From IMG/VR virus record IMGVR_UViG_3300042301_003774, positions 7,518 to 71,517 of that record: a stretch of DNA of 64,000 bases; one strand, given 5' to 3'. Positions 39,286-54,666 of this stretch are shown in pieces (positions within the stretch are counted from its first letter, which is position 1; the number at the start of each line of letters is the position of its first letter). A program made the translations under genes and the position numbers. Source of the stretch: a virus. Below the pieces are notes generated by a model. That model was not told where the DNA came from and searched no databases. It was given only the letters and a program-made list of their open reading frames with translations.

Positions 39286-40005
39286 TTATACACCAAACGC
39301 TTTAGTAAATCCTTCAGGACAAGTTTTTGTACATATCAAATCTGCAATAACTGGTGCAAATGCCGCTCCAATTGCAATACCAACTCCAGCCGGTGTTGCC
39401 CATAACTCTGCAGAATCTAAACTTTTACCTAAACAATTTGAAATTATATTTTTTAATAGTGTATGGTCAATACTATCACTAACGTATGGTATTGCTAAAA
39501 ATCCTTCTGTTATAATTTCAGTCATTGCCATTACTACAACCACTTTAGCTGCTTTATCTGCAGTATAAAGAATTGGTTGTGCCATAAATGATAATGTGGT
39601 TGATGCTACTGCACCTTCAGGTTGTTCTGGTGCAAATGCTGCTGCACAACCCAATCCAATAGCTGCGGTTACCGCTATATTACAAGCATTTTTATCTGCC
39701 CATTGGTATGCATCTATTACACCTTCTTTTACTTCTTCATACCCTTCTTTAATTTCAGATACTATTTGTTTTTCAACCAAATCAATTATTGGCGCAACTT
39801 CTTCATTCCACTCTCTACCAGTTACATCTTCAATTCTATGATTTATTTCAGGATGAGCGTGAATATATGCTATTGCTCTAGAACTAAGTCCCCATGTTTC
39901 ACATATTGAACCATCCCAATCTCCACCATTACCATACATTCTTACATAATTGTCACCGCAATCTGAGCGATGATATACTATTCCGTCTCCGTTTTTGTCT
40001 GCCAT
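39286..40005 (-). CDS. hypothetical protein with hydrophobic Cys-containing helical domain
   Basis: 239-aa ORF with its own TATTTAT-type motif upstream. Confidence 0.55.
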   Translation of the reverse strand: MADKNGDGIVYHRSDCGDNYVRMYGNGGDWDGSICETWGLSSRAIAYIHAHPEINHRIEDVTGREWNEEVAPIIDLVEKQIVSEIKEGYEEVKEGVIDAYQWADKNACNIAVTAAIGLGCAAAFAPEQPEGAVASTTLSFMAQPILYTADKAAKVVVVMAMTEIITEGFLAIPYVSDSIDHTLLKNIISNCLGKSLDSAELWATPAGVGIAIGAAFAPVIADLICTKTCPEGFTKAFGV

Positions 40006-40022
40006 AATATTTATATTTTTAT

Positions 40023-40394
40023 TTATAGTTTATTAAAATCTGTAATTCCTAATTGGTTGTTTTTAGAATCAAATAATCCGATTCTATATGCTGATGATGG
40101 TAATGCTGAAGTATATACTTTTAGTATATTATCACCAGCTTTAACCGTTACAACCTCCTTAGAGACAACTTTATTGGAAATATCAAAAATCTTTATTGTT
40201 ACTGGTTGCTCAACATCAATCTTTACGTTCATTGCAACCTCATTAGTTACAAAGGCAGTTTCTAGCTTAATACCAACCGAATTTTTTATTTGTAGGGCTG
40301 GAGTAACTTGCTGAGTTGGTAGTTCAAAAATATCATCCTTTGAACAACCTACTAACCCAACCACAATTAACGCGAATATTACCGTTTTTTTCAT
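40023..40394 (-). CDS. lipoprotein with Ig-like (T9SS-CTD/FlgD-like) domain
   Basis: LVGC lipobox; VTIKIFDISNKVV...GDN....SALPSSAY. Confidence 0.55.
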   Translation of the reverse strand: MKKTVIFALIVVGLVGCSKDDIFELPTQQVTPALQIKNSVGIKLETAFVTNEVAMNVKIDVEQPVTIKIFDISNKVVSKEVVTVKAGDNILKVYTSALPSSAYRIGLFDSKNNQLGITDFNKL

Positions 40395-40395
40395 T

Positions 40396-40740
40396 TTACT
40401 TAATTATTAATGTTGTTTTATTTAGTTCTTTTTTATCAATATCTTCTAGTAATAAATATAAATACTTGCCCGAAATACTTTTGGTATAAATTTTCTTAAC
40501 ATTTTCACCATTTTGGCCCGTAAATCTTTCTCGGCTAATGACTTGCCCGGTTGTTTTATCTATTAATGTCAATGTATATATCCCGGCAACCGGTAAATTA
40601 AAATATATCGATTGGCCATTAATCACAGTACTTTCATTAATGGCAAATATGTCATCCTTTGCTATAACGTCAGGTAACGGTAATTCTGGTTTTGTACACC
40701 CAACCAATAAAATAAATGATATTAATAATAATTTTTTCAT
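40396..40740 (-). CDS. lipoprotein with Ig-like domain
   Basis: LVGC lipobox; resembles its neighbour. Confidence 0.55.
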   Translation of the reverse strand: MKKLLLISFILLVGCTKPELPLPDVIAKDDIFAINESTVINGQSIYFNLPVAGIYTLTLIDKTTGQVISRERFTGQNGENVKKIYTKSISGKYLYLLLEDIDKKELNKTTLIIK

Positions 40741-41633
40741 TAGAATTTAAAGTTTGTTCCTATCATAAATAGGATTGGATTTGCCTTTTTATATCCTACG
40801 GATTCTGATAACTTATCCCAAGTTGTGTTGTATCTAAGATTAGTATTCAATACAAATCTTTTAGTTATTTTCCAGTTCATAGATAGCCCATAATACAAGT
40901 CCAAATTGAAGTCATCTACATATGCCAAATCTGATTCGGTGCCATCTTTAAATACTTTGTATATATCGCTCATAGCAAATACCTGTGGCGAAATGTCTAC
41001 CCTCTTTGTTTTTAGTGTGTACGTATACATCACCATACCTCTATAAGTAAGTTCGGATGATGCTGGCATTTGTGGATATATTAAATCTAAAAAATCTCCA
41101 TTCACATCCACCGTGTACCTTCCTTTCCATTCACCTTGGTATGTTCCCCAAAATGATTTTGATGCTGTTAAACTATAACCAAATGTCCCCCATTTTTCGG
41201 TTCTAAACACATCAATAAATGATAGGTTAATATCTTTTTGAAAGTCAAAGTCCGTAGAATAAAATGTTTGTATTGTGGTAGTTCTTTTTTCTGTGTTTCT
41301 ACTTAGGCCATAACCAACACCATAATAGTCCCATATAGGATTTATAGATGCTGCAAATGAGTGTCCCCATTGCCCGTTTTTTGATGATTTCTGATACCCT
41401 AAATTAAGTGTTGTGGAAACCTGCCTACCAATTATACCAACCGAAAGGTTTGATGATGATAAGACATCCTTTGAAAAATTAACATAGGATTGTAATATAC
41501 CCACATCATTCCAATCATCACTTTCCCCAAATAATTCTTTTGCGGATAGTTGCAACGTGTCGGGTTTTTGTATCTGTGCATTTGTAACAAATGTTATCGA
41601 AATTAGTGACAGAATTATTAATAGTTTTTTCAT
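40740..41633 (-). CDS. outer-membrane beta-barrel-like protein
   Basis: Signal peptide, alternating beta strands, C-terminal Phe (GTNFKF). Confidence 0.6.
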   Translation of the reverse strand: MKKLLIILSLISITFVTNAQIQKPDTLQLSAKELFGESDDWNDVGILQSYVNFSKDVLSSSNLSVGIIGRQVSTTLNLGYQKSSKNGQWGHSFAASINPIWDYYGVGYGLSRNTEKRTTTIQTFYSTDFDFQKDINLSFIDVFRTEKWGTFGYSLTASKSFWGTYQGEWKGRYTVDVNGDFLDLIYPQMPASSELTYRGMVMYTYTLKTKRVDISPQVFAMSDIYKVFKDGTESDLAYVDDFNLDLYYGLSMNWKITKRFVLNTNLRYNTTWDKLSESVGYKKANPILFMIGTNFKF

Positions 41634-43930
41634 TAGTTAACTTTTACTTTTAATTGACCACCGGCTTTATTTACCGCATCAGTAGCAGATAATGACGTCA
41701 AACCTAATACCCCCTCAATACCAACCTGAGGAATAAATGTTAATTTATATTCTGTTGTTTTGTCTAATAATGTCGATCCGTCTGTAATTAATGAACCTAA
41801 ATTAATATAAGTGCCCCCGTCAACACCAAAATTTGTTGGGTTGCCTTTTGTTTTAAAATCAACTTTTTCAAATTTTAACGCGGTATTGTCATAATTTATT
41901 TGAAATTGTGTTCCAACTAACTCTTGCTGTAATGGATCTATCGATATTGTTATAATGACTTTACCACCAATATTTTCACCCATTAGGTAAGCATTTATTT
42001 GATTTGAAACTGAGTTAGTTGATAAACTCATAGTTCTCATAGAATTACTAGCAACAGAGCTAACAGTTTGTTGTGCCGAATGGGATAAATTCACATCCCC
42101 AATCCAAGTCACGCTAACGTTATAGGTATTATTAAGTGTACCACTATTCAAGTTAAACGGTAATAAACTTCTTGTTGAATTTAATTGTGTTTTCCAATTA
42201 GATTTAGTGACCGCATCGTAATCCGATTTATTATAAAGTTTCATCAAATAGGTTAACGCGGAATATTGTGTTAGTGTTGTTACCCCTGTTAAATGTTGTA
42301 ACAATTTATATGTATCAGATTCGTTAAACACACCATTACCGTCCACATCTGCATTCATAAACTGAATACCATTTGTAAATTCATTCCCGCTTTGATCGCC
42401 AAATATGCCACCATTTGATAATTCCTTAAATGCTATAAACACATCTGAAACAGTTACAATGCTATTATACAACGTGTTTAAATCCGTTTGATTTGTGTAT
42501 GATAAATCAATTCCATGTTGTTTAAAAGATTGAATTAGTGTAAATGCAAATTCAGCTCTTAAACCGTAAAATCCGTTTCCGGCCCTAATAAACGAAGCAA
42601 ATGACGAACCAGAAAAATTAAATTGAGTTGATGTGTAAACATAAACTTCAGTCCATCCATTTGGATCATATGAATTAAATGTTACAGGGCCATTCCATAA
42701 ATCAAATAACTGTAAACTAGTGATTGTAGATGGTGTTGAAACTACCCCATTAACCTCTCTACTATCAATACCAATTCTATACCTTTGGTTAATTGCGTCA
42801 TAATCATATATCACACACCATTCTACATCCCCAGTGGTTGTTGTTGCTCTAGTACCGCCATTATTAACTTTTACAGCATCCAAATCGTTTGTAATATCAA
42901 CTTTACCCAATCCACTTATTGCTCTAGACGTATTTGTTGTTGTACCCCATGTATTATTTACAAATGTGTTTGCTTTTGCTGAAAATTTAGTCTCATCAAC
43001 ATTAGGTCCAAAATCAAAATTGAATCTTGCAGTTAAAACATCTCCGTTTGTGTGTGTTACCGAATTTGTGTAAAATTCAGTAAATGTTGCATCATCGGGA
43101 TTAGTCCAAGTTCCATATTCAATTATATAGGGATTATTCCAATTGTTTGATAAATCATTCCACGTTGATTGACCATTCCAATTTGTTACCGCATAATTCT
43201 CACTACCATTATTACCATTTGGTTCACCAGGTGCCCAGTTGTTATACACACCTGGAATATTACCCGCCGTTTGTCCGTTTGAGGTTTTCATTACCGTCCC
43301 CTTTTCAGGTCCAGCATCTATTACCCAAGTTCCATCTCTAACCTCATCGGTTGCCGCAAACCATATATTAGCTTGTGGTACATTAGCAAATATAAAAGCA
43401 TTTTCCGATGCCGATGTTATTGTTACTAAATACCCTGTCTGTCCTTTGAATGTTGTTAATAACGATGCGGCTCTTGCTCCAGTGTATGTTGTACCTGTTG
43501 ATATTGGTCTATAAAAGTGTCCATTTACACCATTGTAGAAAAATCCAACAGGATTAACAGTTGCTGCTACCGATATTTGAACATTACCGACTACCGAGCC
43601 TGTGGTTATTTTTAAAGATGCTAATGCATTATTGATATTAGCCATTGTACCTGTTACCACTAAACGAGTTTTATTACCTGTTAAAGTAAATCCACTTGCT
43701 GCGGTTAAACCCGTTGTTGTATTAAGATAGAACGTAGTATTTGTTGGTGGATTAACTAAACTGATTGACGCTAATAAAGTTGATGTTGAGCTAAATCCAC
43801 TCAATACAAACCCACTTGCATCTTGTCCGTTTGTGGAGGGTATAAATGACTTAGAGTCCGGAGCAGATACACTCTGTCCGAACCCTAAAAATGAGATTAG
43901 TAAAAAACATATTACTAATAATTTCTTCAT
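41633..43930 (-). CDS. secreted protein with C-type lectin, dockerin-like and cohesin-like domains
   Basis: GYLVTITSASEN..WAPGEPN...ENY...WNDL (C-type lectin); ADVDGNGVFNESD (dockerin-like); GTQFQINYDNTALKF (cohesin-like). Confidence 0.65.
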   Translation of the reverse strand: MKKLLVICFLLISFLGFGQSVSAPDSKSFIPSTNGQDASGFVLSGFSSTSTLLASISLVNPPTNTTFYLNTTTGLTAASGFTLTGNKTRLVVTGTMANINNALASLKITTGSVVGNVQISVAATVNPVGFFYNGVNGHFYRPISTGTTYTGARAASLLTTFKGQTGYLVTITSASENAFIFANVPQANIWFAATDEVRDGTWVIDAGPEKGTVMKTSNGQTAGNIPGVYNNWAPGEPNGNNGSENYAVTNWNGQSTWNDLSNNWNNPYIIEYGTWTNPDDATFTEFYTNSVTHTNGDVLTARFNFDFGPNVDETKFSAKANTFVNNTWGTTTNTSRAISGLGKVDITNDLDAVKVNNGGTRATTTTGDVEWCVIYDYDAINQRYRIGIDSREVNGVVSTPSTITSLQLFDLWNGPVTFNSYDPNGWTEVYVYTSTQFNFSGSSFASFIRAGNGFYGLRAEFAFTLIQSFKQHGIDLSYTNQTDLNTLYNSIVTVSDVFIAFKELSNGGIFGDQSGNEFTNGIQFMNADVDGNGVFNESDTYKLLQHLTGVTTLTQYSALTYLMKLYNKSDYDAVTKSNWKTQLNSTRSLLPFNLNSGTLNNTYNVSVTWIGDVNLSHSAQQTVSSVASNSMRTMSLSTNSVSNQINAYLMGENIGGKVIITISIDPLQQELVGTQFQINYDNTALKFEKVDFKTKGNPTNFGVDGGTYINLGSLITDGSTLLDKTTEYKLTFIPQVGIEGVLGLTSLSATDAVNKAGGQLKVKVN

Positions 43931-43931
43931 A

Positions 43932-45572
43932 TTATTCTATTACTAAGTTTATTTTCTTACCACTAGCATCAACAGCATCGGATAAAACAAAATAGAATAA
44001 ACCTGCAGTATTTGTAAGTGCCACCTTAGGTGTGAATATTAATTTATATGGTGTCCCAGTTTTAATTCTAGATGTTTTTAATTGATCCATAGAGCCAAAT
44101 GTTAATCTACCATCTTTATGTGTAGAAAAATTGGTTATAGTTGAACCGCTATCAAAAACAACGTTATCTAATTGTAATTTAGATTCATCATACTCCATAA
44201 TAACTTCTAAACCAGCTAATCCTTCTTTTGTTAGGTTTGTTGTTAATACAACCTTACCATTTTCCAAAGCGGAAACAACCGATAATTTCGCGGTCTCTAA
44301 TGCTGCTGGAACATAAGACATCACCTGCGTTGACATTGATGTTTTATTGTTTATCGAATTTGTATATAATCCACTACTAATTCTTGTAGCAATTACTGAT
44401 GGATCAGATGAATGTGACCAGTTTAAATCACCACCCCAAGCAAAAACAGCATGAACTTCTTTTACTGGTGAATCGATAATAACTTTATTTTTAACAACAC
44501 CGTCTAACCAGCTTTGATTTAATAAACCACTATACCATCTTACCGATGTTGAAGTCGATGTAGGTATCATAGCTGGACTATCAACATTAATACCCATTAC
44601 ATGCGCGAATAGATAGTAAGAATCCGATTCACTAAATTCAGTTTTGTTTTTTGTAATTAAACCAACTTTCTTTTCTAAATTTGGATAAGTAAAGAAGTTT
44701 GCGGTACCACCAATATCAGTTTGTGAATGACCTAGGAAAGCTTTATATGCGTCAGATACTGTAACAATATTATTCATCCATGATTTTTGCATTGCTGGCC
44801 CAACAAACACACCAACTGAGTCGCCCACTTTAACTTGCGTTGTAAAAAGAGCCTCCCCACTAGCGTCTAATGGTAATTGTGCAATAGGTTGTTTTGACCA
44901 ATCAATATCACCACTACCATCTGTTTTTAATTTCATTAATTGAACATTGTGGTCAGAAATACCGTAACCTTGTGGGAATAATACTTTTACTTTAAATTGC
45001 GAGGTATTACCACTAACGCCAGTTAATGATAAATTAGTTGCGTTGCGAGTTATTGGTGAAATGTTTGCCGAAGCGTCATTAATAGCGTATGCTAAATCTA
45101 ATTTATGAATATCATTATATTGATTTTGGTCTTTAATCACATATTTTTGTGTTGCAATATCACCATTAATTGCGGCATCAGTCCTTTGGATTGTTATTTG
45201 TCCAACATTCCAATCATTATTTGCGGTATAAGCCCATGGTGTTGCAAGATATTGCGCGTACAAACTGGTTGCAGCAATATTTGCTGCTGGGGTGAATATA
45301 AAGTTATTCCAACCAGTGAAAAATGTCTGAGTAGAACTACCTTGTGAAAACACAGTACTATTTGATACCATTGTTAACGCTTTATTGTTAAATGAATATC
45401 TTAACCAGAAATAACGAGGTAATGTGACCCCCCTATCAACAGTATATTTTACGGTTAACGTATCACCAACCATATATGGTCCACCTGGGGTTACCGTTTG
45501 ATTAACGGTTAATTGACTGAATGATGGTAGAGATATTAAAAATACCCCAATAAATAAAATTAAATTTTTCAT
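43932..45572 (-). CDS. secreted protein with cohesin-like C-terminus, paralog of neighbour
   Basis: Signal peptide; shares IVTVSD..AF, GD.N.SHS and DAV...G..L motifs with 41633..43930. Confidence 0.6.
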   Translation of the reverse strand: MKNLILFIGVFLISLPSFSQLTVNQTVTPGGPYMVGDTLTVKYTVDRGVTLPRYFWLRYSFNNKALTMVSNSTVFSQGSSTQTFFTGWNNFIFTPAANIAATSLYAQYLATPWAYTANNDWNVGQITIQRTDAAINGDIATQKYVIKDQNQYNDIHKLDLAYAINDASANISPITRNATNLSLTGVSGNTSQFKVKVLFPQGYGISDHNVQLMKLKTDGSGDIDWSKQPIAQLPLDASGEALFTTQVKVGDSVGVFVGPAMQKSWMNNIVTVSDAYKAFLGHSQTDIGGTANFFTYPNLEKKVGLITKNKTEFSESDSYYLFAHVMGINVDSPAMIPTSTSTSVRWYSGLLNQSWLDGVVKNKVIIDSPVKEVHAVFAWGGDLNWSHSSDPSVIATRISSGLYTNSINNKTSMSTQVMSYVPAALETAKLSVVSALENGKVVLTTNLTKEGLAGLEVIMEYDESKLQLDNVVFDSGSTITNFSTHKDGRLTFGSMDQLKTSRIKTGTPYKLIFTPKVALTNTAGLFYFVLSDAVDASGKKINLVIE

Positions 45573-45573
45573 A

Positions 45574-46116
45574 TTATTTTTTATTAAAAAATGCTTTATT
45601 AATTAAAGACTCGCAGGTCTTCTTTATTGCTGACGATAGTGCTTGTTGATTTACTTTATCACTACCTTCGTCTGTTATTAATGTCGATGTTGAAATCTCT
45701 GAGCTAGATTCTTCGGCAACAACTTCCTTAAGTTTTTTACCAGACTTATCACTCAACTTACCCCTCATTACCACCAACGTTTCTTCAACATCAGAATGGA
45801 ATACGGAGATATTTCGTTTAGTTTTATTTACATCAAAGTATAGTATTTCCGCACTAAAGATTAAATCAGCTGATTTTGCGTCTTCAACAATTATAAAATC
45901 TTTATCTTGTAATATTTCCTGGAAAATGTTTTTAGCACCAAAAGCTAAACTTCTATTATTAGTTAGTTTACCAATTTTGATGTTATTTTCTACCCCAGAA
46001 ATGTATACCGCCTTTGTTTCCTGTAAAGGATCTACGATGTAAGAATACATCCCAAAAAACCCTAATACCACAAAAATGGGTATCAGAGACACATTTAGTC
46101 TATTATTATTTGCCAT
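45574..46116 (-). CDS. membrane-anchored CsgG/LptE-like protein
   Basis: N-terminal TM; LAFGAKNI.QEIL and NQQALSSAIKK parallel to 37007..37726. Confidence 0.45.
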   Translation of the reverse strand: MANNNRLNVSLIPIFVVLGFFGMYSYIVDPLQETKAVYISGVENNIKIGKLTNNRSLAFGAKNIFQEILQDKDFIIVEDAKSADLIFSAEILYFDVNKTKRNISVFHSDVEETLVVMRGKLSDKSGKKLKEVVAEESSSEISTSTLITDEGSDKVNQQALSSAIKKTCESLINKAFFNKK

Positions 46117-46241
46117 AACAATAAATATCGTCAAGGCAATTTGAAGGCCAATATTTACTAAAATATAAGGTAAATCATTAATTTATTAAAAAAAAATAAT
46201 TTTATTTTTTAAGTTTTCTTGATTATATACATATTTATTGG

Positions 46242-46249
46242 TATCTTTG
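46242..46249 (+). promoter_or_regulatory. Bacteroidota-type -7 promoter element for leader 1 / tRNA array 1
   Basis: TATCTTTG = TAnnTTTG consensus. Confidence 0.6.
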
Positions 46250-46277
46250 TAAAAGAAAAAAGATAAAACTAAATTCA

Positions 46278-46376
46278 ATGAGACAATTTACACATACAAT
46301 GTCGTTTACAATCTGTTCAAAATGGGCGGATGAGCGCGCTATGCATAATAGTCTCGGAGATGTTGTATTAAGTTAA
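46278..46376 (+). CDS. attenuator leader peptide 1 (32 aa)
   Basis: MRQFTHTMSFTICSKWADERAMHNSLGDVVLS; codons match array-1 tRNAs; 3' part overlaps an antiterminator strand. Confidence 0.75.
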   Translation: MRQFTHTMSFTICSKWADERAMHNSLGDVVLS

Positions 46377-46400
46377 AAGTAGATTTTAACTAAAAATATT

Positions 46401-46438
46401 AAAACCCTGAGACTTAAAAATCTCGGGGTTTTTTGTTT
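46401..46438 (+). terminator. conditional intrinsic terminator before tRNA array 1
   Basis: AAAACCCTGAGA/TCTCGGGGTTTT stem plus U-tract; 5' arm CTGAGACT can instead pair with AGTCTCGG (46350-46357). Confidence 0.8.
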
Positions 46439-46440
46439 AT

Positions 46441-46510
46441 GGGCCGGATGTCAATGGCAGACCACCTGATTTGCAATCAGAGTGAATGGGTTCGATTCCC
46501 AACGTGTCCA
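46441..46510 (+). tRNA. tRNA-Ala(TGC), imperfect acceptor stem
   Basis: Loop TTTGCAA, G3:U70, T-loop TTCGATT. Confidence 0.7.
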
Positions 46511-46516
46511 CAGAAT

Positions 46517-46590
46517 TGGAATATAGCTCAGTTGGTTAGAGCGTCATCCTGATACGGTGAATGTCGATGGTTCGAGTCCATCTATTCCAA
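46517..46590 (+). tRNA. tRNA-Ile(GAT)
   Basis: Cloverleaf, loop CTGATAC. Confidence 0.9.
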
Positions 46591-46595
46591 CATAA

Positions 46596-46668
46596 GGAAT
46601 TTTTGTATAGCTGGTGCGTACGTCGGACTGAAAATCCGAAGGAACAAGTTCGATTCTTGTAGATTCCA
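46596..46668 (+). tRNA. tRNA-Phe(GAA)
   Basis: Cloverleaf, loop CTGAAAA. Confidence 0.88.
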
Positions 46669-46674
46669 CATAAT

Positions 46675-46748
46675 GATCTCGTAGCTCAGCTGGATAGAGC
46701 ACCTCACTTTTAATGAGGGAGTCAATGGTTCGAGTCCATTCGGGATCA
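46675..46748 (+). tRNA. tRNA-Lys(TTT)
   Basis: Cloverleaf, loop CTTTTAA. Confidence 0.92.
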
Positions 46749-46754
46749 CAACAC

Positions 46755-46825
46755 ACGGGTATGGTGCAACGGTAGCATACGGGTCTCCAAAACCTTTGAT
46801 GGAAGTTCGAATCTTTCTATCCGTG
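46755..46825 (+). tRNA. tRNA-Trp(CCA)
   Basis: Cloverleaf, loop CTCCAAA. Confidence 0.88.
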
Positions 46826-46846
46826 CAAAATTTTAAAAATAAAAAA

Positions 46847-47272
46847 ATGGAAAATAATGAATTAGGGTATAAGTTAAAAATAGATGCTCAACTTATACAA
46901 GTCCGAGAGGAAAGAAAAAAAAGGATAAAAGAATATTGGGAAAATTTACCCAAAATCAATACGCCTGTGGATGTACCTGAATTACCTCAAGTAGATATTC
47001 AAGAATGGAAAGAGTATTATGTCCCAAAACTAATTGAAGCTGGTGCTATTCCTAAAAAAGATTTGGTTGTTGGTCAAATTTATATTGGTGAACATAGGAG
47101 AGCTAGGGTTGCTAAATGGAATGGAGAACAATTTGTTTATAACAGGGAAAAATTTGGAAATGTCTTTGAAGATAAATGCAACCATTTTGAAGATGATGAT
47201 GGGTTCGCATTATTTGTTCCAATAAGAATTGGCACCGAAGAAGAGTTTAATAAAAATGGTCTCATAGTTTAA
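46847..47272 (+). CDS. hypothetical protein inside tRNA array 1
   Basis: 141-aa ORF from ATG 46847; stop lies within tRNA-Arg. Confidence 0.6.
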   Translation: MENNELGYKLKIDAQLIQVREERKKRIKEYWENLPKINTPVDVPELPQVDIQEWKEYYVPKLIEAGAIPKKDLVVGQIYIGEHRRARVAKWNGEQFVYNREKFGNVFEDKCNHFEDDDGFALFVPIRIGTEEEFNKNGLIV

Positions 47273-47328
47273 TGGAAAAACGTCTCGCTACGGACGAGAT
47301 GATTGAGGTTCGAATCCTTGTGAGATCT
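47258..47328 (+). tRNA. tRNA-Arg(ACG)
   Basis: Cloverleaf, loop CTACGGA. Confidence 0.88.
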
Positions 47329-47335
47329 CTTATTA

Positions 47336-47405
47336 GGTCAGTTTGGTCGTGGAGGCCAGTTAGTCTGCAAAACTAACGGAGTTGGTTCGATTCCAACATT
47401 GACCT
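47336..47405 (+). tRNA. tRNA-Cys(GCA)
   Basis: Cloverleaf, loop CTGCAAA, U73. Confidence 0.85.
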
Positions 47406-47407
47406 CT

Positions 47408-47483
47408 GTGTTTATGGTGTTAATGGTTAGCATGACAGATTGTGGTTCTGTTGGTATGGGTTCAAATCCCATTAAACACCCCA
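47408..47483 (+). tRNA. tRNA-His(GTG)
   Basis: Loop TTGTGGT, C73, encoded CCA. Confidence 0.88.
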
Positions 47484-47488
47484 TATAT

Positions 47489-47563
47489 TGCGGGATGCGT
47501 AGAAAATGGTTATCTCATCGGTCTCATAAGCCGAGGTTCTGGGTTCGAGTCCCAGTCCCGCAA
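47489..47563 (+). tRNA. tRNA-Met(CAT)
   Basis: Loop CTCATAA, paired U1-A72, atypical D arm. Confidence 0.75.
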
Positions 47564-47626
47564 CAAAAAATATGTCTGAATAATTTTTTTATTCGATTTA
47601 TTTATTTATTTTTGTTGAAGATATAT

Positions 47627-47698
47627 CGCGAGATAGAGCAGCGGTAGCTCGGAAGGCTCATAACCTTTAGGTCGGGGGTTCGATTCCCTCTCTCGCAA
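47627..47698 (+). tRNA. initiator-type tRNA-fMet(CAT)
   Basis: C1xA72 mismatch, loop CTCATAA. Confidence 0.82.
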
Positions 47699-47700
47699 CA

Positions 47701-47883
47701 ATAGGTGAAGACTGTGGTGGAAGCCCACGGTATATGAGTCCCTAAAAGCTGTCTTGATTCGCGGTATCAAAGCGGTGCGGGTAGAGTAACATATAAGTCG
47801 GGAGTAATTAACCAATTGACGAAAATGTAACCGCCGGTTAGAGATAATCGGTTATGATGTTCAAATGCGAACGAAAAACCTAT
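47701..47883 (+). ncRNA. unknown structured RNA
   Basis: ATAGGT/ACCTAT closing stem, several hairpins, GGAGTAATTAACC motif. Confidence 0.45.
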
Positions 47884-47887
47884 AAAC

Positions 47888-47959
47888 GGTCCTGTAGTTA
47901 ATCGGCTATAACGCCGCCCTGTCACGGCGGTATGCCGGGTTCGATTCCCGGTGGGACCG
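47888..47959 (+). tRNA. tRNA-Asp(GTC)
   Basis: Cloverleaf, loop CTGTCAC, G73. Confidence 0.92.
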
Positions 47960-47960
47960 C

Positions 47961-48174
47961 AATGAGTAAGAGATACTCGGTAGTCTTTCATCCAAGACTC
48001 ATTTAACAATGGATGGGGATAAAAAATTTCCACCTACGGAATTTCGATTTGGAATAATGGTAGCAAGGTTCAGCACCACCAACGTATTGAACTGACTTTT
48101 TAATCGGGGATGCCCAGCAGGTTTTTCAAACAGTAAAAACCGATATAACTACTCACAGACAATCTCGCTGTGGG
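47961..48174 (+). ncRNA. unknown structured RNA with possible pseudoknot
   Basis: Multiple hairpins; loop TCATCC complementary to GGATGG. Confidence 0.4.
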
Positions 48175-48180
48175 ACAATT

Positions 48181-48266
48181 GGAAGGATGGCAGAGTTGGT
48201 CTATCGCGCTGGTCTTGAAAACCAGAGCTCTGAAAGGGGCCGTGGGTTCGAATCCTACTCCTTCCG
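48181..48266 (+). tRNA. tRNA-Ser(TGA)
   Basis: Long variable arm, loop CTTGAAA, G73. Confidence 0.92.
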
Positions 48267-48267
48267 C

Positions 48268-48406
48268 TAATCACAAATAAAAATGTGAGTTATAATAAAA
48301 TAGCCAATTATAAGCCAACATAAAGTTGTTGGGTACAGACGGAGTAATTAACCGGAGTATAACGCAACAATTGTGATATTATAACAAATACCCATTTGAG
48401 TGATTA
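48268..48406 (+). ncRNA. unknown structured RNA
   Basis: TAATCAC/GTGATTA closing stem, second GGAGTAATTAACC motif. Confidence 0.4.
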
Positions 48407-48409
48407 TTT

Positions 48410-48481
48410 GGCCCGTTCGACTATCGGTTAGGTCGTCAGGTTTTCATCCTGGAAAGAGGGGTTCGATTCCCCTACGGGCTA
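48410..48481 (+). tRNA. tRNA-Glu(TTC)
   Basis: Cloverleaf, loop TTTTCAT. Confidence 0.92.
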
Positions 48482-48496
48482 CTAAACATTATTAGT

Positions 48497-48703
48497 ATGA
48501 AGAAGATTGTTTTATTATTAATTGTTGCGATCTCAATGTGTGGTTGTATTGTGATGCCAAGTAGGTTATCAATTCATGAAAAAAGATTATGGATACACCA
48601 AAATCAACCAAGACAATATTACTATAAAACACATCCAAGATTTCAAGAAAGAATAAAAAGAGGTAAAATTTACACACCTTATTTTAGACCTGGTAGATAT
48701 TAA
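48497..48703 (+). CDS. small putative lipoprotein
   Basis: MKKIVLLLIVAISMCGC signal/lipobox. Confidence 0.55.
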   Translation: MKKIVLLLIVAISMCGCIVMPSRLSIHEKRLWIHQNQPRQYYYKTHPRFQERIKRGKIYTPYFRPGRY

Positions 48704-48764
48704 AATAAAAAAATATTTACAATTAAAATAAACTTTTGTAAATTTACGTATACTTATTACAACG

Positions 48765-48875
48765 ATGACGAATATAAATAACATATTAACGCTTAGTACT
48801 AGACCCCTTAACAATGGTAATGGGTATGGTGTGCAACCGTTATATTGCTTATGTTCGGATCTTATAGAGATGTAA
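48765..48875 (+). CDS. attenuator leader peptide 2 (36 aa)
   Basis: MTNINNILTLSTRPLNNGNGYGVQPLYCLCSDLIEM; codons 2-27 all belong to array-2 tRNA codon families. Confidence 0.78.
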   Translation: MTNINNILTLSTRPLNNGNGYGVQPLYCLCSDLIEM

Positions 48876-48897
48876 AAAATTTTTACGATTATAAATG

Positions 48898-48938
48898 AAG
48901 CCCGAACAAATTAAAAAAATGTTCGGGCTTTTTGTTTT
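48898..48938 (+). terminator. conditional intrinsic terminator before tRNA array 2
   Basis: AAGCCCGAACA/TGTTCGGGCTT stem plus U-tract; CCGAACA can instead pair with TGTTCGG (48852-48858). Confidence 0.8.
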
Positions 48939-48968
48939 CTAATATTTTATCTCTATATTTGAAACATA

Positions 48969-48979
48969 GTTCTTTGACA
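48969..48979 (+). promoter_or_regulatory. boxA-like antitermination element
   Basis: GTTCTTTGACA resembles rrn boxA; similar elements at 54482 and 56941. Confidence 0.5.
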
Positions 48980-48995
48980 TGATGAAAAGCCAAAT

Positions 48996-49079
48996 GCCTG
49001 GGTGATGGAATGGTAGACATGACAGACTTAAAATCTGTTGGGCAAATCGCTCGTGCGGGTTCGACTCCCGCCCTAGGTA
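48996..49079 (+). tRNA. tRNA-Leu(TAA)
   Basis: Long variable arm, loop CTTAAAA. Confidence 0.92.
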
Positions 49080-49083
49080 CAAT

Positions 49084-49157
49084 GGTTCCATAGCTCAATT
49101 GGATAGAGCAACACACTTCTAATGTGTAGGTTTCAGGTTCGACTCCTGATGGAATCA
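49084..49157 (+). tRNA. tRNA-Arg(TCT)
   Basis: Cloverleaf, loop CTTCTAA. Confidence 0.92.
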
Positions 49158-49158
49158 C

Positions 49159-49298
49159 AAAGATAATGGTCTGATGTTATTATGATTGTCGACAAATCAT
49201 GGTAGCTCTTAAACAGACAGCACCCTCTGCCGATGCATCGTAAAACTATTACTAAGCAGTTAAGATTGGAACGAGACGGGTATTCCAACATTATCTTT
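49159..49298 (+). ncRNA. unknown structured RNA
   Basis: 10-bp closing stem AAAGATAATG/CATTATCTTT, multi-way junction, possible TCTTAA/TTAAGA pseudoknot. Confidence 0.5.
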
Positions 49299-49303
49299 AT
49301 TTT

Positions 49304-49377
49304 CGGGATATAGCGTAGTCCGGTATCGCGCTTGGTTTGGGACCAAGAGGTCGTAGGTTCGAATCCTGCTATCCCGA
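49304..49377 (+). tRNA. tRNA-Pro(TGG)
   Basis: Cloverleaf, loop TTTGGGA. Confidence 0.92.
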
Positions 49378-49384
49378 CATTATT

Positions 49385-49458
49385 GCCTTCTTAGCTCAGT
49401 TGGTTAGAGCAACGCACTGTTAATGCGTGGGTTCCTGGTTCGAGTCCAGGAGAGGGCG
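49385..49458 (+). tRNA. tRNA-Asn(GTT)
   Basis: Cloverleaf, loop CTGTTAA. Confidence 0.92.
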
Positions 49459-49465
49459 CAACAAT

Positions 49466-49546
49466 GCCCTGGTGGTGGAATTGGTAGACACACTAGATTT
49501 AGGATCTAGCGCGAAAGTATTGAGGGTTCGAGTCCCTCCTAGGGTA
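49466..49546 (+). tRNA. tRNA-Leu(TAG)
   Basis: Loop TTTAGGA, long variable arm. Confidence 0.92.
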
Positions 49547-49555
49547 CAATAAATT

Positions 49556-49636
49556 GGGAGTATCGCATAGTGGCAATTGCAGAAGACTGTAAATCTTCCC
49601 TCATCGAGTTCAGTGGTTCGAGTCCACTTACTCCCA
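49556..49636 (+). tRNA. tRNA-Tyr(GTA)
   Basis: Loop CTGTAAA, long variable arm. Confidence 0.92.
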
Positions 49637-49642
49637 CAATTT

Positions 49643-49719
49643 GGACTTGTAGCTCAGTTGGTTAGAGCACTTCACTCATAATGAATAGGTCCCTGGTTCG
49701 AGCCCAGGCTGGTCCACCA
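49643..49719 (+). tRNA. tRNA(CAT), probably Ile2 (lysidine; reads AUA)
   Basis: Ile-like body (GGACTTG-TAGCTCAGTTGGTTAGAGC), loop CTCATAA, encoded CCA; ATA codons in leader 2 are consistent. Confidence 0.75.
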
Positions 49720-49722
49720 AAT

Positions 49723-49795
49723 AGAAGATTAGCTCAGTTGGGAGAGCGCTTGTCTTACATGCAAGATGTCACTGGTTCGATTCCAGTATCTTCTA
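49723..49795 (+). tRNA. tRNA-Val(TAC)
   Basis: Cloverleaf, loop CTTACAT. Confidence 0.92.
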
Positions 49796-49800
49796 CAATT

Positions 49801-49873
49801 GCCTCCATAGCTCAGTTGGTAGAGCAGCTGATTTGTAATCAGCAGGTCGTTGGTTCGAGCCCGACTGGAGGCT
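49801..49873 (+). tRNA. tRNA-Thr(TGT)
   Basis: Cloverleaf, loop TTTGTAA. Confidence 0.93.
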
Positions 49874-49925
49874 CGATGGGTCTGAGGGAGTCCCGAAAAG
49901 GTATAAATAACCTGTCCCTCTCCAA

Positions 49926-49998
49926 GCGAAAGTAGCTCAGTCGGTAGAGCATTACCTTGCCAAGGTAAGGGTCGCGAGTTCGAATCTCGTCTTTCGCT
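49926..49998 (+). tRNA. tRNA-Gly(GCC)
   Basis: Cloverleaf, loop TTGCCAA, U73. Confidence 0.93.
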
Positions 49999-50046
49999 CT
50001 TAGAGGTACTTCCAAGTTTTTTTAATATTTGGAAGTATTTATAGAT

Positions 50047-50478
50047 ATGAAAACAAAAATATGCCCTAAATGTGAAATTGAATTACCGTTAAATGACGAA
50101 CATTTCGCATCAAGATATGATAGAAAAGAAAAAATGTTTCAACATATCTGTAGAAAATGTCAGAGTGAATATAGAAAAACTCATTATGAAAAAAATAAAC
50201 AAAAATATATTGATAAAGCTAAAGTCTTTACTAAATCAATGGTTGAATGGTTTATTGAATATAAAAAAACATTAAAATGTGTCGAATGTGGTGAAGATAG
50301 ATATTGGGTTTTAGATTTTCACCATAGAGACCCTAAAGAAAAAGATATCGAGGTTTCTACTTTAATTAGAAGGGGTAGTAAAAGTAAAATATTAAATGAA
50401 ATTGAAAAATGTGACGTTCTATGTTCTAATTGTCATAGGGATTTACATTTTAAAGAAAATAATGCGGATTTCGCCTAG
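50047..50478 (+). CDS. HNH endonuclease (putative homing endonuclease)
   Basis: CxxC pairs, LDFHHRDP..K...EIEKCDVLCSNCHR HNH motif; lies between two tRNA-Gly genes. Confidence 0.85.
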   Translation: MKTKICPKCEIELPLNDEHFASRYDRKEKMFQHICRKCQSEYRKTHYEKNKQKYIDKAKVFTKSMVEWFIEYKKTLKCVECGEDRYWVLDFHHRDPKEKDIEVSTLIRRGSKSKILNEIEKCDVLCSNCHRDLHFKENNADFA

Positions 50479-50537
50479 TTGGTATGGCATCACACTTCCA
50501 ATGTGAAATAGGATCGGTTCGAGCCCGATAATCCGCT
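50464..50537 (+). tRNA. tRNA-Gly(TCC)
   Basis: Cloverleaf, loop CTTCCAA. Confidence 0.9.
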
Positions 50538-50542
50538 CATTA

Positions 50543-50613
50543 TGTCCTTTGGTGTAACGGTAGCACAACTGTTTTTGGTGCAGTTTGTTTAGGTTCGAAT
50601 CCTAAAGGGACAA
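50543..50613 (+). tRNA. tRNA-Gln(TTG)
   Basis: U1-A72, loop TTTTGGT. Confidence 0.9.
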
Positions 50614-50617
50614 CAAT

Positions 50618-50707
50618 AGAGAGTTACCCAAGTTGGTGAAGGGGTCTGTTTGCTAAACAGATAGGTCGGGTTAAACCGGCGCAAGGGTTCGAGCCCCTTA
50701 CTCTCTA
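50618..50707 (+). tRNA. tRNA-Ser(GCT)
   Basis: Loop TTGCTAA, long variable arm. Confidence 0.9.
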
Positions 50708-50711
50708 CATA

Positions 50712-50860
50712 CTGTAGTGTGACGAAATTGGCAAACGTGCCCTCCTGTCTCGGGGGCGGTGACAAAGAAATAGATTAGTAATATGGGGTAGACCACCAGC
50801 CGGCCGGCGTAATGTTACTAATTGAATCTCACCTTGGTGGTTCGAATCCATCCGCTACAG
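50712..50860 (+). ncRNA. tRNA-like RNA (GTC anticodon position) with ~80-nt variable arm
   Basis: 8-bp acceptor CTGTAGTG/CGCTACAG, D and T arms intact, loop CTGTCTC, very large structured variable region. Confidence 0.7.
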
Positions 50861-50894
50861 CATTTATAAAATAAACTAAGTAAAATGAAATGAA

Positions 50895-51356
50895 ATGAAA
50901 CAATTTAAAACACTTCACGGAATTGTGATTCCGAACTTGATTGAATATGTTAGGGAATACATATCAACAAGGGAGAACGTAGAAATTCTTATTGGTTCTG
51001 ACTCACAATGTTATAGCCATAAAAAAACCGTGTATGGTGTTGTAATTGCTTTATACACTCCTGGAAAGGGGGCACACGTTTTATGTAATCGTGAAACATT
51101 ACCGATGGAATATAATACACCGTCTAGATTATTAAATGAAGTTTGGAGATCGATTGAAATTGCTGAATGGATGAAAGAAAACGGTTTACCAAAAGCAACA
51201 TATATTGATATTGATTTAAATCCAGATCCAAAGTACAAATCAAACGCTGTATTAAGACAAGCTGTTGGTTTAGTTGAAGGTATGGGGTATAAAGTTAGAT
51301 ATAAACATTTCGGTGCTTTAACAACATACGCAGCTAATCAACTAGTTCGAATTTAA
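50895..51356 (+). CDS. RNase H-like YkuK family protein
   Basis: ILIGSDSQ, RLLNEVWRSIEIA, IDIDLN motifs. Confidence 0.75.
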   Translation: MKQFKTLHGIVIPNLIEYVREYISTRENVEILIGSDSQCYSHKKTVYGVVIALYTPGKGAHVLCNRETLPMEYNTPSRLLNEVWRSIEIAEWMKENGLPKATYIDIDLNPDPKYKSNAVLRQAVGLVEGMGYKVRYKHFGALTTYAANQLVRI

Positions 51357-51375
51357 AGGTATTTATAGTTAACAT

Positions 51376-52230
51376 ATGCATATAAACATACCCGAATATA
51401 AATTAAGTATTATTGTACCACATAAATCTGGTAATACTATAATATACTCAACTATAGTAGAAATTCTGGAATTAAATTCAATTGAATTTAATAACACATC
51501 TAATAATGATGAGTTAGAAGAAAATTGTTTTTTATTTGTAAGAAACCCTATAGATAGATTTTTCTCATCATATAATTGGTATGCAAAGGTTAAAAGATTA
51601 TTTGATGTTGATAGATTGGACAGTCTAACAGCAGATCAATTATCCCTGATGGACGAATCGTTAAAAATATTTGGTGATTTAGAAATTGATTCATTACAAA
51701 AATTTATTGAAAAGTATAGGATTTTTATAAATAATTCAACTGATACCCATTTTTTACCGCAAAGTTCTTTTTTTTTAAAAAGAAATGGTGATAAAGGAAT
51801 GAGAGCAAATTTAAATCTTAATATTAGAAAAGAGTACGACGCTAGGTTTGAAAATCGAAACTATAAATTTTTTAGAGTTGAGGACATTAGCGATACCATA
51901 AAATTAAATAAAAGTTTATTAATGAGTCGGGGTATAACAAACTTTGGTATACATAAAAAAGATAATGTTAGTAAGGTCGACCTAAAAACATTTCCCTTTC
52001 TAAAAGATTTTCCAAAAAACACTGACCATTTATTTATGGTTTTTCATGCTTATTTTAATGATTTTTTATCTGAATATCATCATTCAAAAAACCCTAATTA
52101 CTATTATAATGAAATTACTGTTAATGATTATATAACGGTATGTAACATGTTTAAAAAAGAATGTGTTTTTTTTGGCTATGATGACGAGCCGAATTTAAAC
52201 AATATTGAATTCAAAAGAAACACGATTTAA
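51376..52230 (+). CDS. sulfotransferase family 2-like protein
   Basis: PHKSGNT, FVRNPIDRFFSSY, HFLPQ motifs. Confidence 0.65.
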   Translation: MHINIPEYKLSIIVPHKSGNTIIYSTIVEILELNSIEFNNTSNNDELEENCFLFVRNPIDRFFSSYNWYAKVKRLFDVDRLDSLTADQLSLMDESLKIFGDLEIDSLQKFIEKYRIFINNSTDTHFLPQSSFFLKRNGDKGMRANLNLNIRKEYDARFENRNYKFFRVEDISDTIKLNKSLLMSRGITNFGIHKKDNVSKVDLKTFPFLKDFPKNTDHLFMVFHAYFNDFLSEYHHSKNPNYYYNEITVNDYITVCNMFKKECVFFGYDDEPNLNNIEFKRNTI

Positions 52231-52313
52231 TTTTTTTTTCATAAACTCTTTGTTTTTTAAAAAAAGTATTGTACATTTGTCCTCACAACAATAATAACAA
52301 CAATTTTTACGAC

Positions 52314-54386
52314 ATGGATTTGAAAAGAAATATCGTCGCACTAAAAAAGGGGTTCATAGCACCATCTAACGACGGGATGGATAATAGAATTGCTACAGCA
52401 ACCGTACAAGCTCATTTAATGAGTTGGGGTTACATGTTAGATCAAGACGCTTTCGAAGCGTTATCAAAATCAGATCTTTCATATATTACAAATTTTAATA
52501 ATGAAGTTCTTTCTTATTTGAAAGACATTACTGGTGGTAATAGGAATTACGAACCATTGTACAAAAACTTCCCACAAGAGGTTATGTCAATGTCCGATTT
52601 CGAATTATACTTTAATGCTATATGTCATTATTGGTCTAATGGTAATTGGGAACCATCTACTGTTACATACGAAAAACCAATTGCATTTGAAAATGTCAAA
52701 TACAATATGATTAAGTTTGCAACGCAAGAAAGATTTTCACAAATTTTTACTGATTTGGTATCAATCAATACATCAATATCTCCACAAGACATGGAGATTG
52801 TTAAATGGTTTGTTGAAAGCGGTGAAAAACTTATTTTCCCTAATGTCATTCCATTTAAAGAAAATCTTTGCACATTAGCTGCAATGGGTATTGAGGGTTT
52901 ACCAGTTAAAACACCAACAGATGTATTGCGTATTGCTGTACATATGTCAGGTGGTGATATTAGTTTACCTAGAGTACCAGAAAAAGAAGTTCGCGCTAGT
53001 CTTTGGACAACACAACGAATTTTAAATCCTGAAAGAGTTAAATTTAAATTTAAAAAGTTTACTCGTAAGGATCGTAAGTATCTTTTAGGTTTATTAGAGC
53101 AAACTAATTGTGATCCAAAAGAAATGGCGTTGAAAGATCAAAGATGGGTTCGTCTTGGTGAAATTCTTCATCCAATGGAGTACAAGAAATTATTTCCAAA
53201 AGCGGCTAATAGTTTTAATATTATTCGTAATGAAAAAGTTAAGACTTGGTATGGTGTTTTAAATGAGGCGTTCAATAATGGTTTAGAAGAAGGATTAAAA
53301 GTTCTTTCACAAAAACCTGGTGAATTTTCAAGAAAATTAGATTGGTTAATCCGTTCTAATCCAAAAGATACCAATCTTATTATGAGATATTTTAGTGAAG
53401 CGGTTAAAACAACATCAAATAAAGTATTGTTTGAGATGTATGGTCACTTTGAAAATCGTTTGGAAGATAATAACGATCGTTCAATTATGATCAAAGGTGC
53501 TAGGAAAAAAACACTGTTACCGTCATTGAAAGCATTAGATAATAATGTTGTTGAAAATATTCATTCAAAACTTTTTGAAACACTTAGAGATAAGTTTTCA
53601 ACATTGGATAAATTAGGTGATTGTTGGATCGATGAGGAATTGAAAAAAATCCCATTACCAACAAACATGCGAAGCATGAGCTTTTCATCTAAACCAATTT
53701 TAAGAGGCCAAAGAGTACCACTTGATAACCTTGATGCTAAAGTTATTAGACCATTTATACATTGGTATGATAAAGTTGGTCGTGAAGATTTAGATTTAAG
53801 TGTTACCTTTGTTGGAGATAAAACAGATGTTCTTTCTTTCAGTAATATGAAAGTTGGTAATTCGGTTCACTCTGGTGATGTTAGACATCGTCAAGGCGCT
53901 TGTGCTGAGTATATTGACATTGATATTGCTGACGCAAAATCACGTGGGTTTAAGTATGTTGTTATTGATGTTAGAAATTATAACGGTCGTGGGTTAAACA
54001 CACTTGAGAGTTCATTTGGAATAATGGAAAGAGAGTTTCCGGAATCAAATAAAACATGGTTGCCAGAAACGATATCAAGTTGTTCTAAATTAGAGTCAAC
54101 ATCAGCAAGTACATTGGTCGCTATCATTGATTTATATACCAAAGAATACATTATGTTGGATATAGATTCGGATGGTTGGTTTACAGCTAGTGGGGATGTT
54201 AAAAACACATTGAAACTTGTTGAACAATATTCTAAGTTACCAAAAGTTAGTGTGTATGATCTGGCTCTATTACATGTAGAGGCTAGAGGTCGTCAAGTAA
54301 CTTTGGATTCGAATGTTGACACATATTTCAAAATGGAAGACTTTATGACTTCTTATGAAGAAATTGGAAAACTGATGGGGGTGTAA
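52314..54386 (+). CDS. ROT/TROVE-like helical repeat protein with C-terminal TerD-like domain
   Basis: PLYKNFP, IPFKENL, TPTDVLR, KPGEFSRKLDWL, DLDLS...HSGD....GACAEYIDID; architecture as described for Prok-RING_4-associated proteins but without the RING; TACATTTG promoter upstream. Confidence 0.7.
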   Translation: MDLKRNIVALKKGFIAPSNDGMDNRIATATVQAHLMSWGYMLDQDAFEALSKSDLSYITNFNNEVLSYLKDITGGNRNYEPLYKNFPQEVMSMSDFELYFNAICHYWSNGNWEPSTVTYEKPIAFENVKYNMIKFATQERFSQIFTDLVSINTSISPQDMEIVKWFVESGEKLIFPNVIPFKENLCTLAAMGIEGLPVKTPTDVLRIAVHMSGGDISLPRVPEKEVRASLWTTQRILNPERVKFKFKKFTRKDRKYLLGLLEQTNCDPKEMALKDQRWVRLGEILHPMEYKKLFPKAANSFNIIRNEKVKTWYGVLNEAFNNGLEEGLKVLSQKPGEFSRKLDWLIRSNPKDTNLIMRYFSEAVKTTSNKVLFEMYGHFENRLEDNNDRSIMIKGARKKTLLPSLKALDNNVVENIHSKLFETLRDKFSTLDKLGDCWIDEELKKIPLPTNMRSMSFSSKPILRGQRVPLDNLDAKVIRPFIHWYDKVGREDLDLSVTFVGDKTDVLSFSNMKVGNSVHSGDVRHRQGACAEYIDIDIADAKSRGFKYVVIDVRNYNGRGLNTLESSFGIMEREFPESNKTWLPETISSCSKLESTSASTLVAIIDLYTKEYIMLDIDSDGWFTASGDVKNTLKLVEQYSKLPKVSVYDLALLHVEARGRQVTLDSNVDTYFKMEDFMTSYEEIGKLMGV

Positions 54387-54409
54387 GATCCCTATCTTTT
54401 AAAAATATT

Positions 54410-54474: not shown

Positions 54475-54500
54475 TAATTTAGTTCTTTAAAATAATATTA

Positions 54501-54659: not shown

Positions 54660-54666
54660 AACATAA

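Follow-up and report, generated by a model that had tools for sequence, protein, structure and literature searches.

Among the systems described so far, those closest to the locus studied here are the classical leader-peptide attenuators of amino-acid operons, exemplified by trpL, hisL, leuL and pheL and by the multivalent thrL and ilvGMEDA leaders. In trp attenuation, the terminator is more stable than the antiterminator, and the choice between them is kinetic. In E. coli pheST, a Phe-rich leader precedes the phenylalanyl-tRNA synthetase. T-box elements are untranslated and bind one uncharged tRNA directly, via a specifier codon. Here we analyze a 64,000-nt stretch of viral DNA (hereafter the window; positions 7,518 to 71,517 of IMG/VR record IMGVR_UViG_3300042301_003774), in which a short open reading frame (ORF) and an intrinsic terminator precede the first of two tRNA arrays. 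Judged from its sequence and that of its relatives, this element is likely a ribosome-mediated (leader-peptide) transcription attenuator controlling tRNA array 1 of a jumbo phage. The elements needed to follow the argument are these:

46219-46249, + strand: promoter-like element of the TAnnTTTG type (TTG, 20 nt, TATCTTTG), 29 nt upstream of the leader ORF
46278-46376, + strand: leader ORF (leader 1), 32 codons plus stop, encoding MRQFTHTMSFTICSKWADERAMHNSLGDVVLS
46279-46284, + strand: segment 1, UGAGAC, codons 1-3, which can pair with 46351-46356
46287-46346, + strand: putative sensing block, codons 4-23, of which 12-23 are all array-1 codons
46350-46357, + strand: segment 2, AGTCTCGG, inside codons 25-27, 5' arm of the putative antiterminator
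46371-46391, + strand: inner hairpin across the stop codon, AGTTAAAA (46371-78) with TTTTAACT (46384-91), 8 bp
46401-46434, + strand: intrinsic terminator, stem CCCTGAGA/TCTCGGGG extended by AAAA/UUUU, 8-nt loop, then a T-run
46407-46414, + strand: segment 3, CTGAGACT, common to the antiterminator and the terminator 5' arm
46441-48482, + strand: tRNA array 1 (presumed controlled genes), Ala-TGC, Ile-GAT, Phe-GAA, Lys-TTT, Trp-CCA, Arg-ACG, Cys-GCA, His-GTG, CAT x2, Asp-GTC, Ser-TGA, Glu-TTC
48996-50708, + strand: tRNA array 2, Leu-TAA, Arg-TCT, Pro, Asn, Leu-TAG, Tyr, CAT, Val, Thr, Gly-GCC, Gly-TCC, Gln, Ser-GCT

The layout resembles that of the classical attenuators in having a short promoter-proximal ORF, mutually exclusive 2:3 and 3:4 hairpins, and a terminator ahead of the genes presumed to be controlled. 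As in those systems, a ribosome finishing the ORF would cover segment 2, the terminator is the more stable structure, and the choice would be kinetic. Unlike them, the phage system would control tRNAs rather than enzymes, and in its leader each of the 12 tRNA species is represented by one or two codons, matched at the level of isoacceptors. It is also phage-encoded, with an apparently Bacteroidota-type promoter and a 1:2 helix that is not conserved family-wide, and it matches no Rfam leader family. The likeness to pheST is that a component of the translation apparatus would be controlled by ribosome stalling at its own cognate codons; but pheST involves one amino acid and a synthetase, whereas the phage case involves twelve tRNA species, which are also its products. 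As with T-box riboswitches, antitermination would report tRNA status ahead of translation-related genes. Yet the phage leader has a many-codon ORF, and a search of 46000-51500 at E <= 1 gave no Rfam family match for it, T-box and other cis-regulatory leader families included.

The nearest functional analogue in the literature read appears to be the long supernumerary tRNA array of Anabaena sp. PCC 7120, which, according to PMC8421152, is induced by translational stress and regulated through promoter repeats. What it shares with the proposed phage system is that impaired translation turns on a supernumerary array; in the main text of PMC8421152, attenuat-, leader and terminator have no occurrences. 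A leader-peptide attenuator before tRNA genes had no published case in the full-text literature searched, supplements and subscription journals lying outside the coverage. Leader-peptide attenuation itself is known; its application to tRNA arrays, with an isoacceptor-resolution codon checklist, would be new.

We assigned the codons of leader 1 to tRNAs by standard wobble rules. Every one of codons 12-23 (46311-46346; ATC TGT TCA AAA TGG GCG GAT GAG CGC GCT ATG CAT) is read by array-1 tRNAs, 11 of them distinct, and TTT at codons 4 and 10 adds Phe to the coverage. An earlier note on this DNA, made from the letters alone, had pointed out these twelve consecutive codons and had claimed that, with the two TTT codons, they cover all 12 array-1 amino acids; the wobble assignment confirms both statements. 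Ranked by distinct tRNAs, the block comes first among the 31,427 array-1-only runs in all six frames of the window (11, next best 9), and no comparable block is contained in any of 2,000,000 random 31-codon ORFs generated with phage codon usage. All 12 of the array-1 elongator tRNA species (12/12) have codons within codons 4-20, and the Met and His codons at 22-23 recur earlier, at codons 8 and 6.

The + strand carries 26 tRNA genes in the two arrays, 24 of which are called by ARAGORN, and the arrays jointly decode all 61 sense codons. Three of these tRNAs have a CAT anticodon (47496-47563 and 47627-47699 in array 1, and 49643-49719 in array 2). For the array-2 gene, the best E. coli match is tRNA-Ile(CAT), with 76.6% identity over full length, so this tRNA probably reads ATA. 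The tRNA at 47627-47699 has a C1xA72 mismatch, which we take to be an initiator mark, and we treat it as initiator-like. The tRNA at 47496 has no match among E. coli tRNAs; because the other CAT tRNAs are excluded, it was taken as elongator Met. In the tRNA-Ala(TGC) at 46441-46511, the D stem is 3 bp long and two of the acceptor pairs are non-Watson-Crick, but G3-U70 is retained. This odd form is conserved in relatives L005 and L010, and canonical tRNA-Ala is found in other relatives.

A second leader on the same DNA shows the corresponding match to array 2:

48765-48875, + strand: leader 2 ORF, encoding MTNINNILTLSTRPLNNGNGYGVQPLYCLCSDLIEM and followed by its own terminator

Leader 2 has 26 consecutive array-2 codons, covering 13/13 array-2 tRNAs, and none of the other runs, 31,845 in all, equals this coverage (next best 10). 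Its ATA codons match the tRNA-Ile(CAT)-like gene at 49643. The core segments of leader 2 are nearly invariant in 23 homologues and therefore give no covariation test.

To follow leaders and arrays among relatives, we made two protein-anchored scans of viral contigs, which gave 97 loci (80 of 129 confirmed relatives kept, plus 17) on contigs as long as 333 kb. All 97 were scanned for tRNAs, terminators and ORFs that end close to a terminator. Leaders are present in all clades. In the window-like clade the leader reads ...FTICSKWADERAM..., and elsewhere leader codons differ along with the tRNA genes. In a lineage whose array 1 has taken in Val-TAC and Thr-TGT, leader 1 reads ...FTICSKWAEVADI... 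(AEVAD) and leader 2 is without Thr codons. In L037, where Asp-GTC and Ser-TGA belong to array 2, leader 2 shows a gain of ...YNDNG... (Asp) and TCN codons, and the leader-1 block (...KWCAMGEI...) has no Asp or TCN codons. The leader of L025, where Glu and Asp are not in the array-1-like block but in the other array, is KWTAIRHI, and that of its close relative L026, with both tRNAs downstream, is KWAEIRDI. Distant clades with a single large array have single leaders of 30-53 codons, covering 18-23 of 19-23 tRNA species, and their peptides are unrelated in sequence.

The same association holds in counts across loci. For 14 two-leader loci, 561/649 block codons are cognate to the home array only, the block being the ORF minus its last 9 codons, a rule derived from the window. 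Among 335 combinations of tRNA species and phage, the codon is in the home leader only in 263, in both leaders in 64, in neither in 8, and in the other leader only in 0. Four further two-leader loci (L088, L089, L093 and L099), with fewer than nine array-2 tRNAs in the locus, were left out of the 14-locus count. The block rule cuts the Asp codon from shorter leaders, so the Asp count of 0 in the Val/Thr lineage is an artefact. When each leader was compared with all same-length stop-free windows in its locus, none covered more of the home array in 51/63 leader/array rows; the other 12 rows comprise two merged-array artefacts and long leaders with saturated coverage. Low coverage in L034 (16/24) and L048 (15/25) is artefactual and was not counted as a test, because the terminator filter missed the second leader and the arrays were merged.

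Isoacceptors sharing an amino acid are also divided between the leaders, as counted in 21 leader-1-type (L1-type) and 22 leader-2-type (L2-type) leaders:

Ser TCN: 48 in L1-type, 13 in L2-type
Ser AGY: 1 in L1-type, 21 in L2-type
Arg CGN: 21 in L1-type, 0 in L2-type
Arg AGR: 11 in L1-type, 24 in L2-type
Ile ATY: 37 in L1-type, 3 in L2-type
Ile ATA: 2 in L1-type, 37 in L2-type

Synonymous variants inside one tRNA's codon set are frequent (TCA/TCG/TCT, AAA/AAG, GCG/GCA, CGT/CGC). The split fits selection on which tRNA reads each codon, and not on the peptide or on amino-acid identity alone. This codon-to-array co-variation at the isoacceptor level gives the attenuator reading its strongest support.

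The split also bears on what such a switch would sense. The same RNA switch might respond to the supply of amino acids or to translation capacity as a whole (starvation, antibiotics, ribosome shortage) and not to particular tRNAs. Absent and uncharged tRNAs are alike to a stalled ribosome, and one codon per species would suit a summed measure of elongation speed; moreover, PMC8421152 describes a bacterial tRNA array that responds to translational stress of a general kind by being induced. But a signal of this kind has no need to split Ser, Arg and Ile codons by isoacceptor between leaders, or to lose the codons of a tRNA gene that has moved out of the array, and we consider it unlikely. It is in any case a variant of the attenuator explanation rather than a contradiction of it.

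Evidence of a different kind comes from RNA pairing. Segments 2 and 3 pair over 8 bp, including one G-U. In the alignment of 21 distinct leader-1 regions, where segments 2 and 3 and the terminator 3' partner of segment 3 (segment 4) are conserved, the antiterminator core pairs are kept in 98.0% of 148 cells. Compensatory, both-sided changes are seen at 3/8 of these pairs (13 cells), as in TCTCGAGGT/ACCTCGAGA of L089, which becomes TCCCGAGGT/ACCTCGGGA in L046. None of 500 shuffles matches the observed antiterminator pairing or covariation score, and in a slid control, with the partner moved by 1-3 columns, pairing is <=51%. The terminator is paired in 100% of cells (21 homologues). Its stem of 12 pairs, 5 of them G-C, has a predicted energy of -11.6 kcal/mol, or -16.0 with the A/U tracts, and the first tRNA (Ala, 46441) starts 8 nt after the T-run region. 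The antiterminator hairpin (46347-46417) is predicted at -17.5 kcal/mol (z = -4.16), with 0/200 shuffles as good. It overlaps the terminator 5' arm, and the two would be mutually exclusive.

These results largely uphold the structure drawn in the earlier note, in which 46350-57 pairs with 46407-14 within a long hairpin over the stop codon that precludes termination. The 8-bp pairing and the inner helix stand. The middle helix, given there as GATGTT/AATATT, does not; the minimum-energy fold uses GUAUU/AAUAU. Segment 2 lies inside the last ORF codons in all homologues, 7-28 nt before the stop, and in 43/62 distinct leaders, from all clades, a last-codon segment is complementary to the terminator 5' arm at z < -2. 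A 1:2 fold can also be drawn (46275-46360, UGAGAC with GUCUCG, -21.0 kcal/mol); among the 9 window-like homologues, 8 can pair segment 2 with ORF nt 3-7, L005 having a shifted register.

From these sequences we infer translation of the ORF, function of the terminator, and the direction and trigger of the response. Transcription would start at the conserved promoter-like element, and the 32-codon leader would be translated while RNA polymerase advances. Because the leader holds codons for each downstream tRNA species, one or two apiece, the time a ribosome takes to cross it would reflect the decoding of those codons. A ribosome slowed in approximately codons 2-21 would leave segment 2 free to pair with segment 3 once the latter is made; no terminator would form, and polymerase would continue into tRNA-Ala and through array 1. 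With fast decoding, segment 2 would be masked by the ribosome, as would the inside of the hairpin as far as the stop codon; segment 3 would pair with segment 4, and transcription would stop at the T-run. The phage, then, probably makes array-1 tRNAs only when ribosomes read their codons slowly. The net effect would be negative feedback, with the tRNA set made when charged tRNAs for these codons are scarce; possible triggers are decay or cleavage of host tRNAs and a codon-usage mismatch with the host.

We modeled the nascent RNA, ending before segment 4, with an assumed ribosome footprint of -18 to +12 relative to the A-site. The 2:3 pairing is kept in full (8/8) with the modeled A-site at codons 5-20 and at 7/8 at codon 21, and it is lost (0/8) from codon 22 to the stop. 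A ribosome in the block thus leaves the pairing and one near the stop removes it in this model, as the earlier note had proposed, and its attenuator interpretation is supported by the combined data. Under the assumed footprint, codons 22-23 (ATG, CAT) are too near segment 2 to act.

Several observations weigh against this interpretation. The complete transcript favors the terminator fold (-46.0 vs -37.1 kcal/mol for any antiterminator fold), and with a modeled ribosome at every codon the terminator fold still wins. In constrained folding with ribosome footprints, suggested in the earlier note as a check, the nascent RNA model agrees with the note; the complete transcript always gives the terminator, and we do not take that result as support. 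Since the terminator fold wins at equilibrium, any switch must be kinetic and co-transcriptional. Moreover, ribosome-free nascent RNA already has 2:3 as its minimum-energy fold, which makes it uncertain that an untranslated leader would terminate. Within the family, the window has the weakest core 2:3 duplex (-7.5 kcal/mol, z = -1.1, with the stem arm alone scored), and conservation of the 1:2 helix is confined to the window-like clade (73.9% of cells paired over all 21).

Other reservations concern codons, genes and counts. Five of codons 2-11 (2, 3, 5, 7 and 11; AGA, CAA and ACA x3) are array-2 codons, as the earlier note correctly cautioned. AGA at codon 2 is part of segment 1, and the stray Thr codons fit the existence of relatives with tRNA-Thr in array 1: leader 1 has 3-5 Thr codons where tRNA-Thr is in array 1 and 1-3 where it is in array 2. 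The leader offers one or two codons per tRNA, not runs of one codon, so its sensitivity to losing a single tRNA is uncertain; it probably sums delays over the codon set rather than responding sharply to one tRNA. Two array-1 tRNAs are weakly called, namely the atypical tRNA-Ala-TGC at 46441-46511 (Rfam 30.1 bits against a cut-off of 29; found by ARAGORN only at relaxed threshold) and the CAT tRNA at 47496-47563 (33.4 bits against the same cut-off of 29; ARAGORN at relaxed threshold). A TAnnTTTG motif inside array 1 (TATTTTTG, 47607-47614), 12 nt ahead of the initiator-like tRNA, is a possible internal promoter. Finally, the related loci are kin, and therefore cell counts overstate the number of independent events and are not counts of such events; the relocations of Asp/Ser, Glu/Asp and Val/Thr are the more independent evidence.

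How array 1 is reached by polymerase matters for a further alternative. Upstream of the leader, 46219-46249 is the sole full TTG...TAnnTTTG motif; in 21 homologues its TA..TTTG columns are invariant and TTCTTG nearly so. TAnnTTTG we take to be the Bacteroidota -7 consensus. The upstream neighbor gene is on the minus strand, and the terminator therefore ends only the leader transcript. With such a promoter and terminator, the leader might be an independent small-peptide gene, the tRNAs coming from unregulated leak-through or other promoters and the codon composition being incidental or peptide-related. The peptide core FTICSKWA is conserved, the terminator fold is favored at equilibrium, and the TAnnTTTG at 47607 might serve the tRNAs. 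However, between the terminator and the first tRNA no L1-type locus (0/21) has a TAnnTTTG motif, the gap being mostly 5-14 nt, and the peptide has no Pfam or PHROG match. A small-peptide gene would leave unexplained both the isoacceptor split and the codons that follow tRNA genes between arrays, as well as the compensatory changes by which segment 2 stays able to pair with the terminator arm; and unrelated peptides in distant clades share the codon property. We regard it as very improbable.

A similarly slight chance attaches to antitermination independent of translation, in which a phage or host protein or a small RNA would bind the leader and the ORF would not be translated. The ORF is without a Shine-Dalgarno sequence, and the 2:3 pairing in the ribosome-free nascent RNA model would suit such a mechanism. 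Yet the leader ATG is invariant (21/21 homologues) and the frame is kept, synonymous changes do not leave the codon set of one tRNA, the codons present follow the tRNA genes present, segment 2 is always within the last ORF codons, and the leader has no Rfam family match. That an AT-rich ORF merely happens to precede a terminator has next to no probability, for only a post-hoc choice of block boundaries speaks for chance, and the whole-window ranking, the relatives, the covariation and the window-coverage comparison refute it.

Array 2 differs in the spacer between its terminator and first tRNA. There, a promoter-like TTG...TATATTTG (48932-48961) is followed by a conserved GTTCTTTGACAT (48969-48980), and TAnnTTTG plus GTTCTTTGACAT lies between terminator 2 and tRNA-Leu in 17/22 L2-type loci. 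The word GTTCTTTGAC also precedes the first tRNA in other clades. This spacer motif may be a second, unattenuated (bypass) promoter for array 2, or a processing signal.

Other genes accompany the arrays. ORF 46847-47272 within array 1 encodes a 141-aa protein of phrog_18490 (unknown function), and 50029-50478 within array 2 an HNH endonuclease (phrog_2255). Between array 1 and leader 2 lies ORF 48497-48703 (68 aa), with a lipoprotein-like signal (MKKIVLLLIVAISMCGC) and no family match. Directly after array 2, 50895-51356 encodes a 153-aa RNase H-like protein of PF04308; in the 80 loci retained from 129 confirmed relatives, this protein is conserved beside the tRNA arrays at 52-90% identity. 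A phage-encoded tmRNA is called by ARAGORN at 56956-57362, with tag peptide GNVYNNMEVAGLLATTKVAA. A tRNA with anticodon CTA (labeled 'Pyl' by ARAGORN, amber-suppressor-like) occurs near or within the arrays of L032, L033, L038, L040, L048, L053, L085, L098 and L100; none was found in the part of the window scanned for it (40001-56000).

The source record is 71.5 kb long, with a CheckV completeness estimate of 21%, and the window is therefore taken to be a jumbo-phage fragment. In a search of sequencing runs, 18 DNA runs contained at least half of the sampled words, all of them lake-water metagenomes, and 6 possible RNA runs contained 5-10%, as contigs. A DNA search of phage records returned tRNA-to-tRNA similarity and a match of the array-1 ORF to the 735-kb uncultured phage LR756501.1; that locus (L002) is without tRNAs and was set aside.

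The reason phages carry tRNA genes is still debated, and PMC10264068, PMC11555353 and PMC12409363 discuss codon compensation and evasion of tRNA-targeting host defences as possible roles. We lean, by a little over even odds, toward a broader view in which jumbo phages carry modular decoding sensors of isoacceptor resolution, each tRNA sub-array being preceded by a translated list of just the codons that it serves. The phages would measure the usable host tRNA pool codon by codon and switch on only the matching tRNA genes when that supply gives out, for instance through host anticodon nucleases or the decay of tRNAs. On this view, these would be the first tRNA genes under ribosome-mediated attenuation, and their leaders a new 'one codon per species' integrator design. 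Leader-peptide attenuation would extend from metabolic operons to the translation machinery's own RNAs, and the leader would be a compact natural reporter of codon-specific translation speed. Phages would be monitoring tRNA supply as a regulated quantity, and the purpose of their tRNA genes would become testable.

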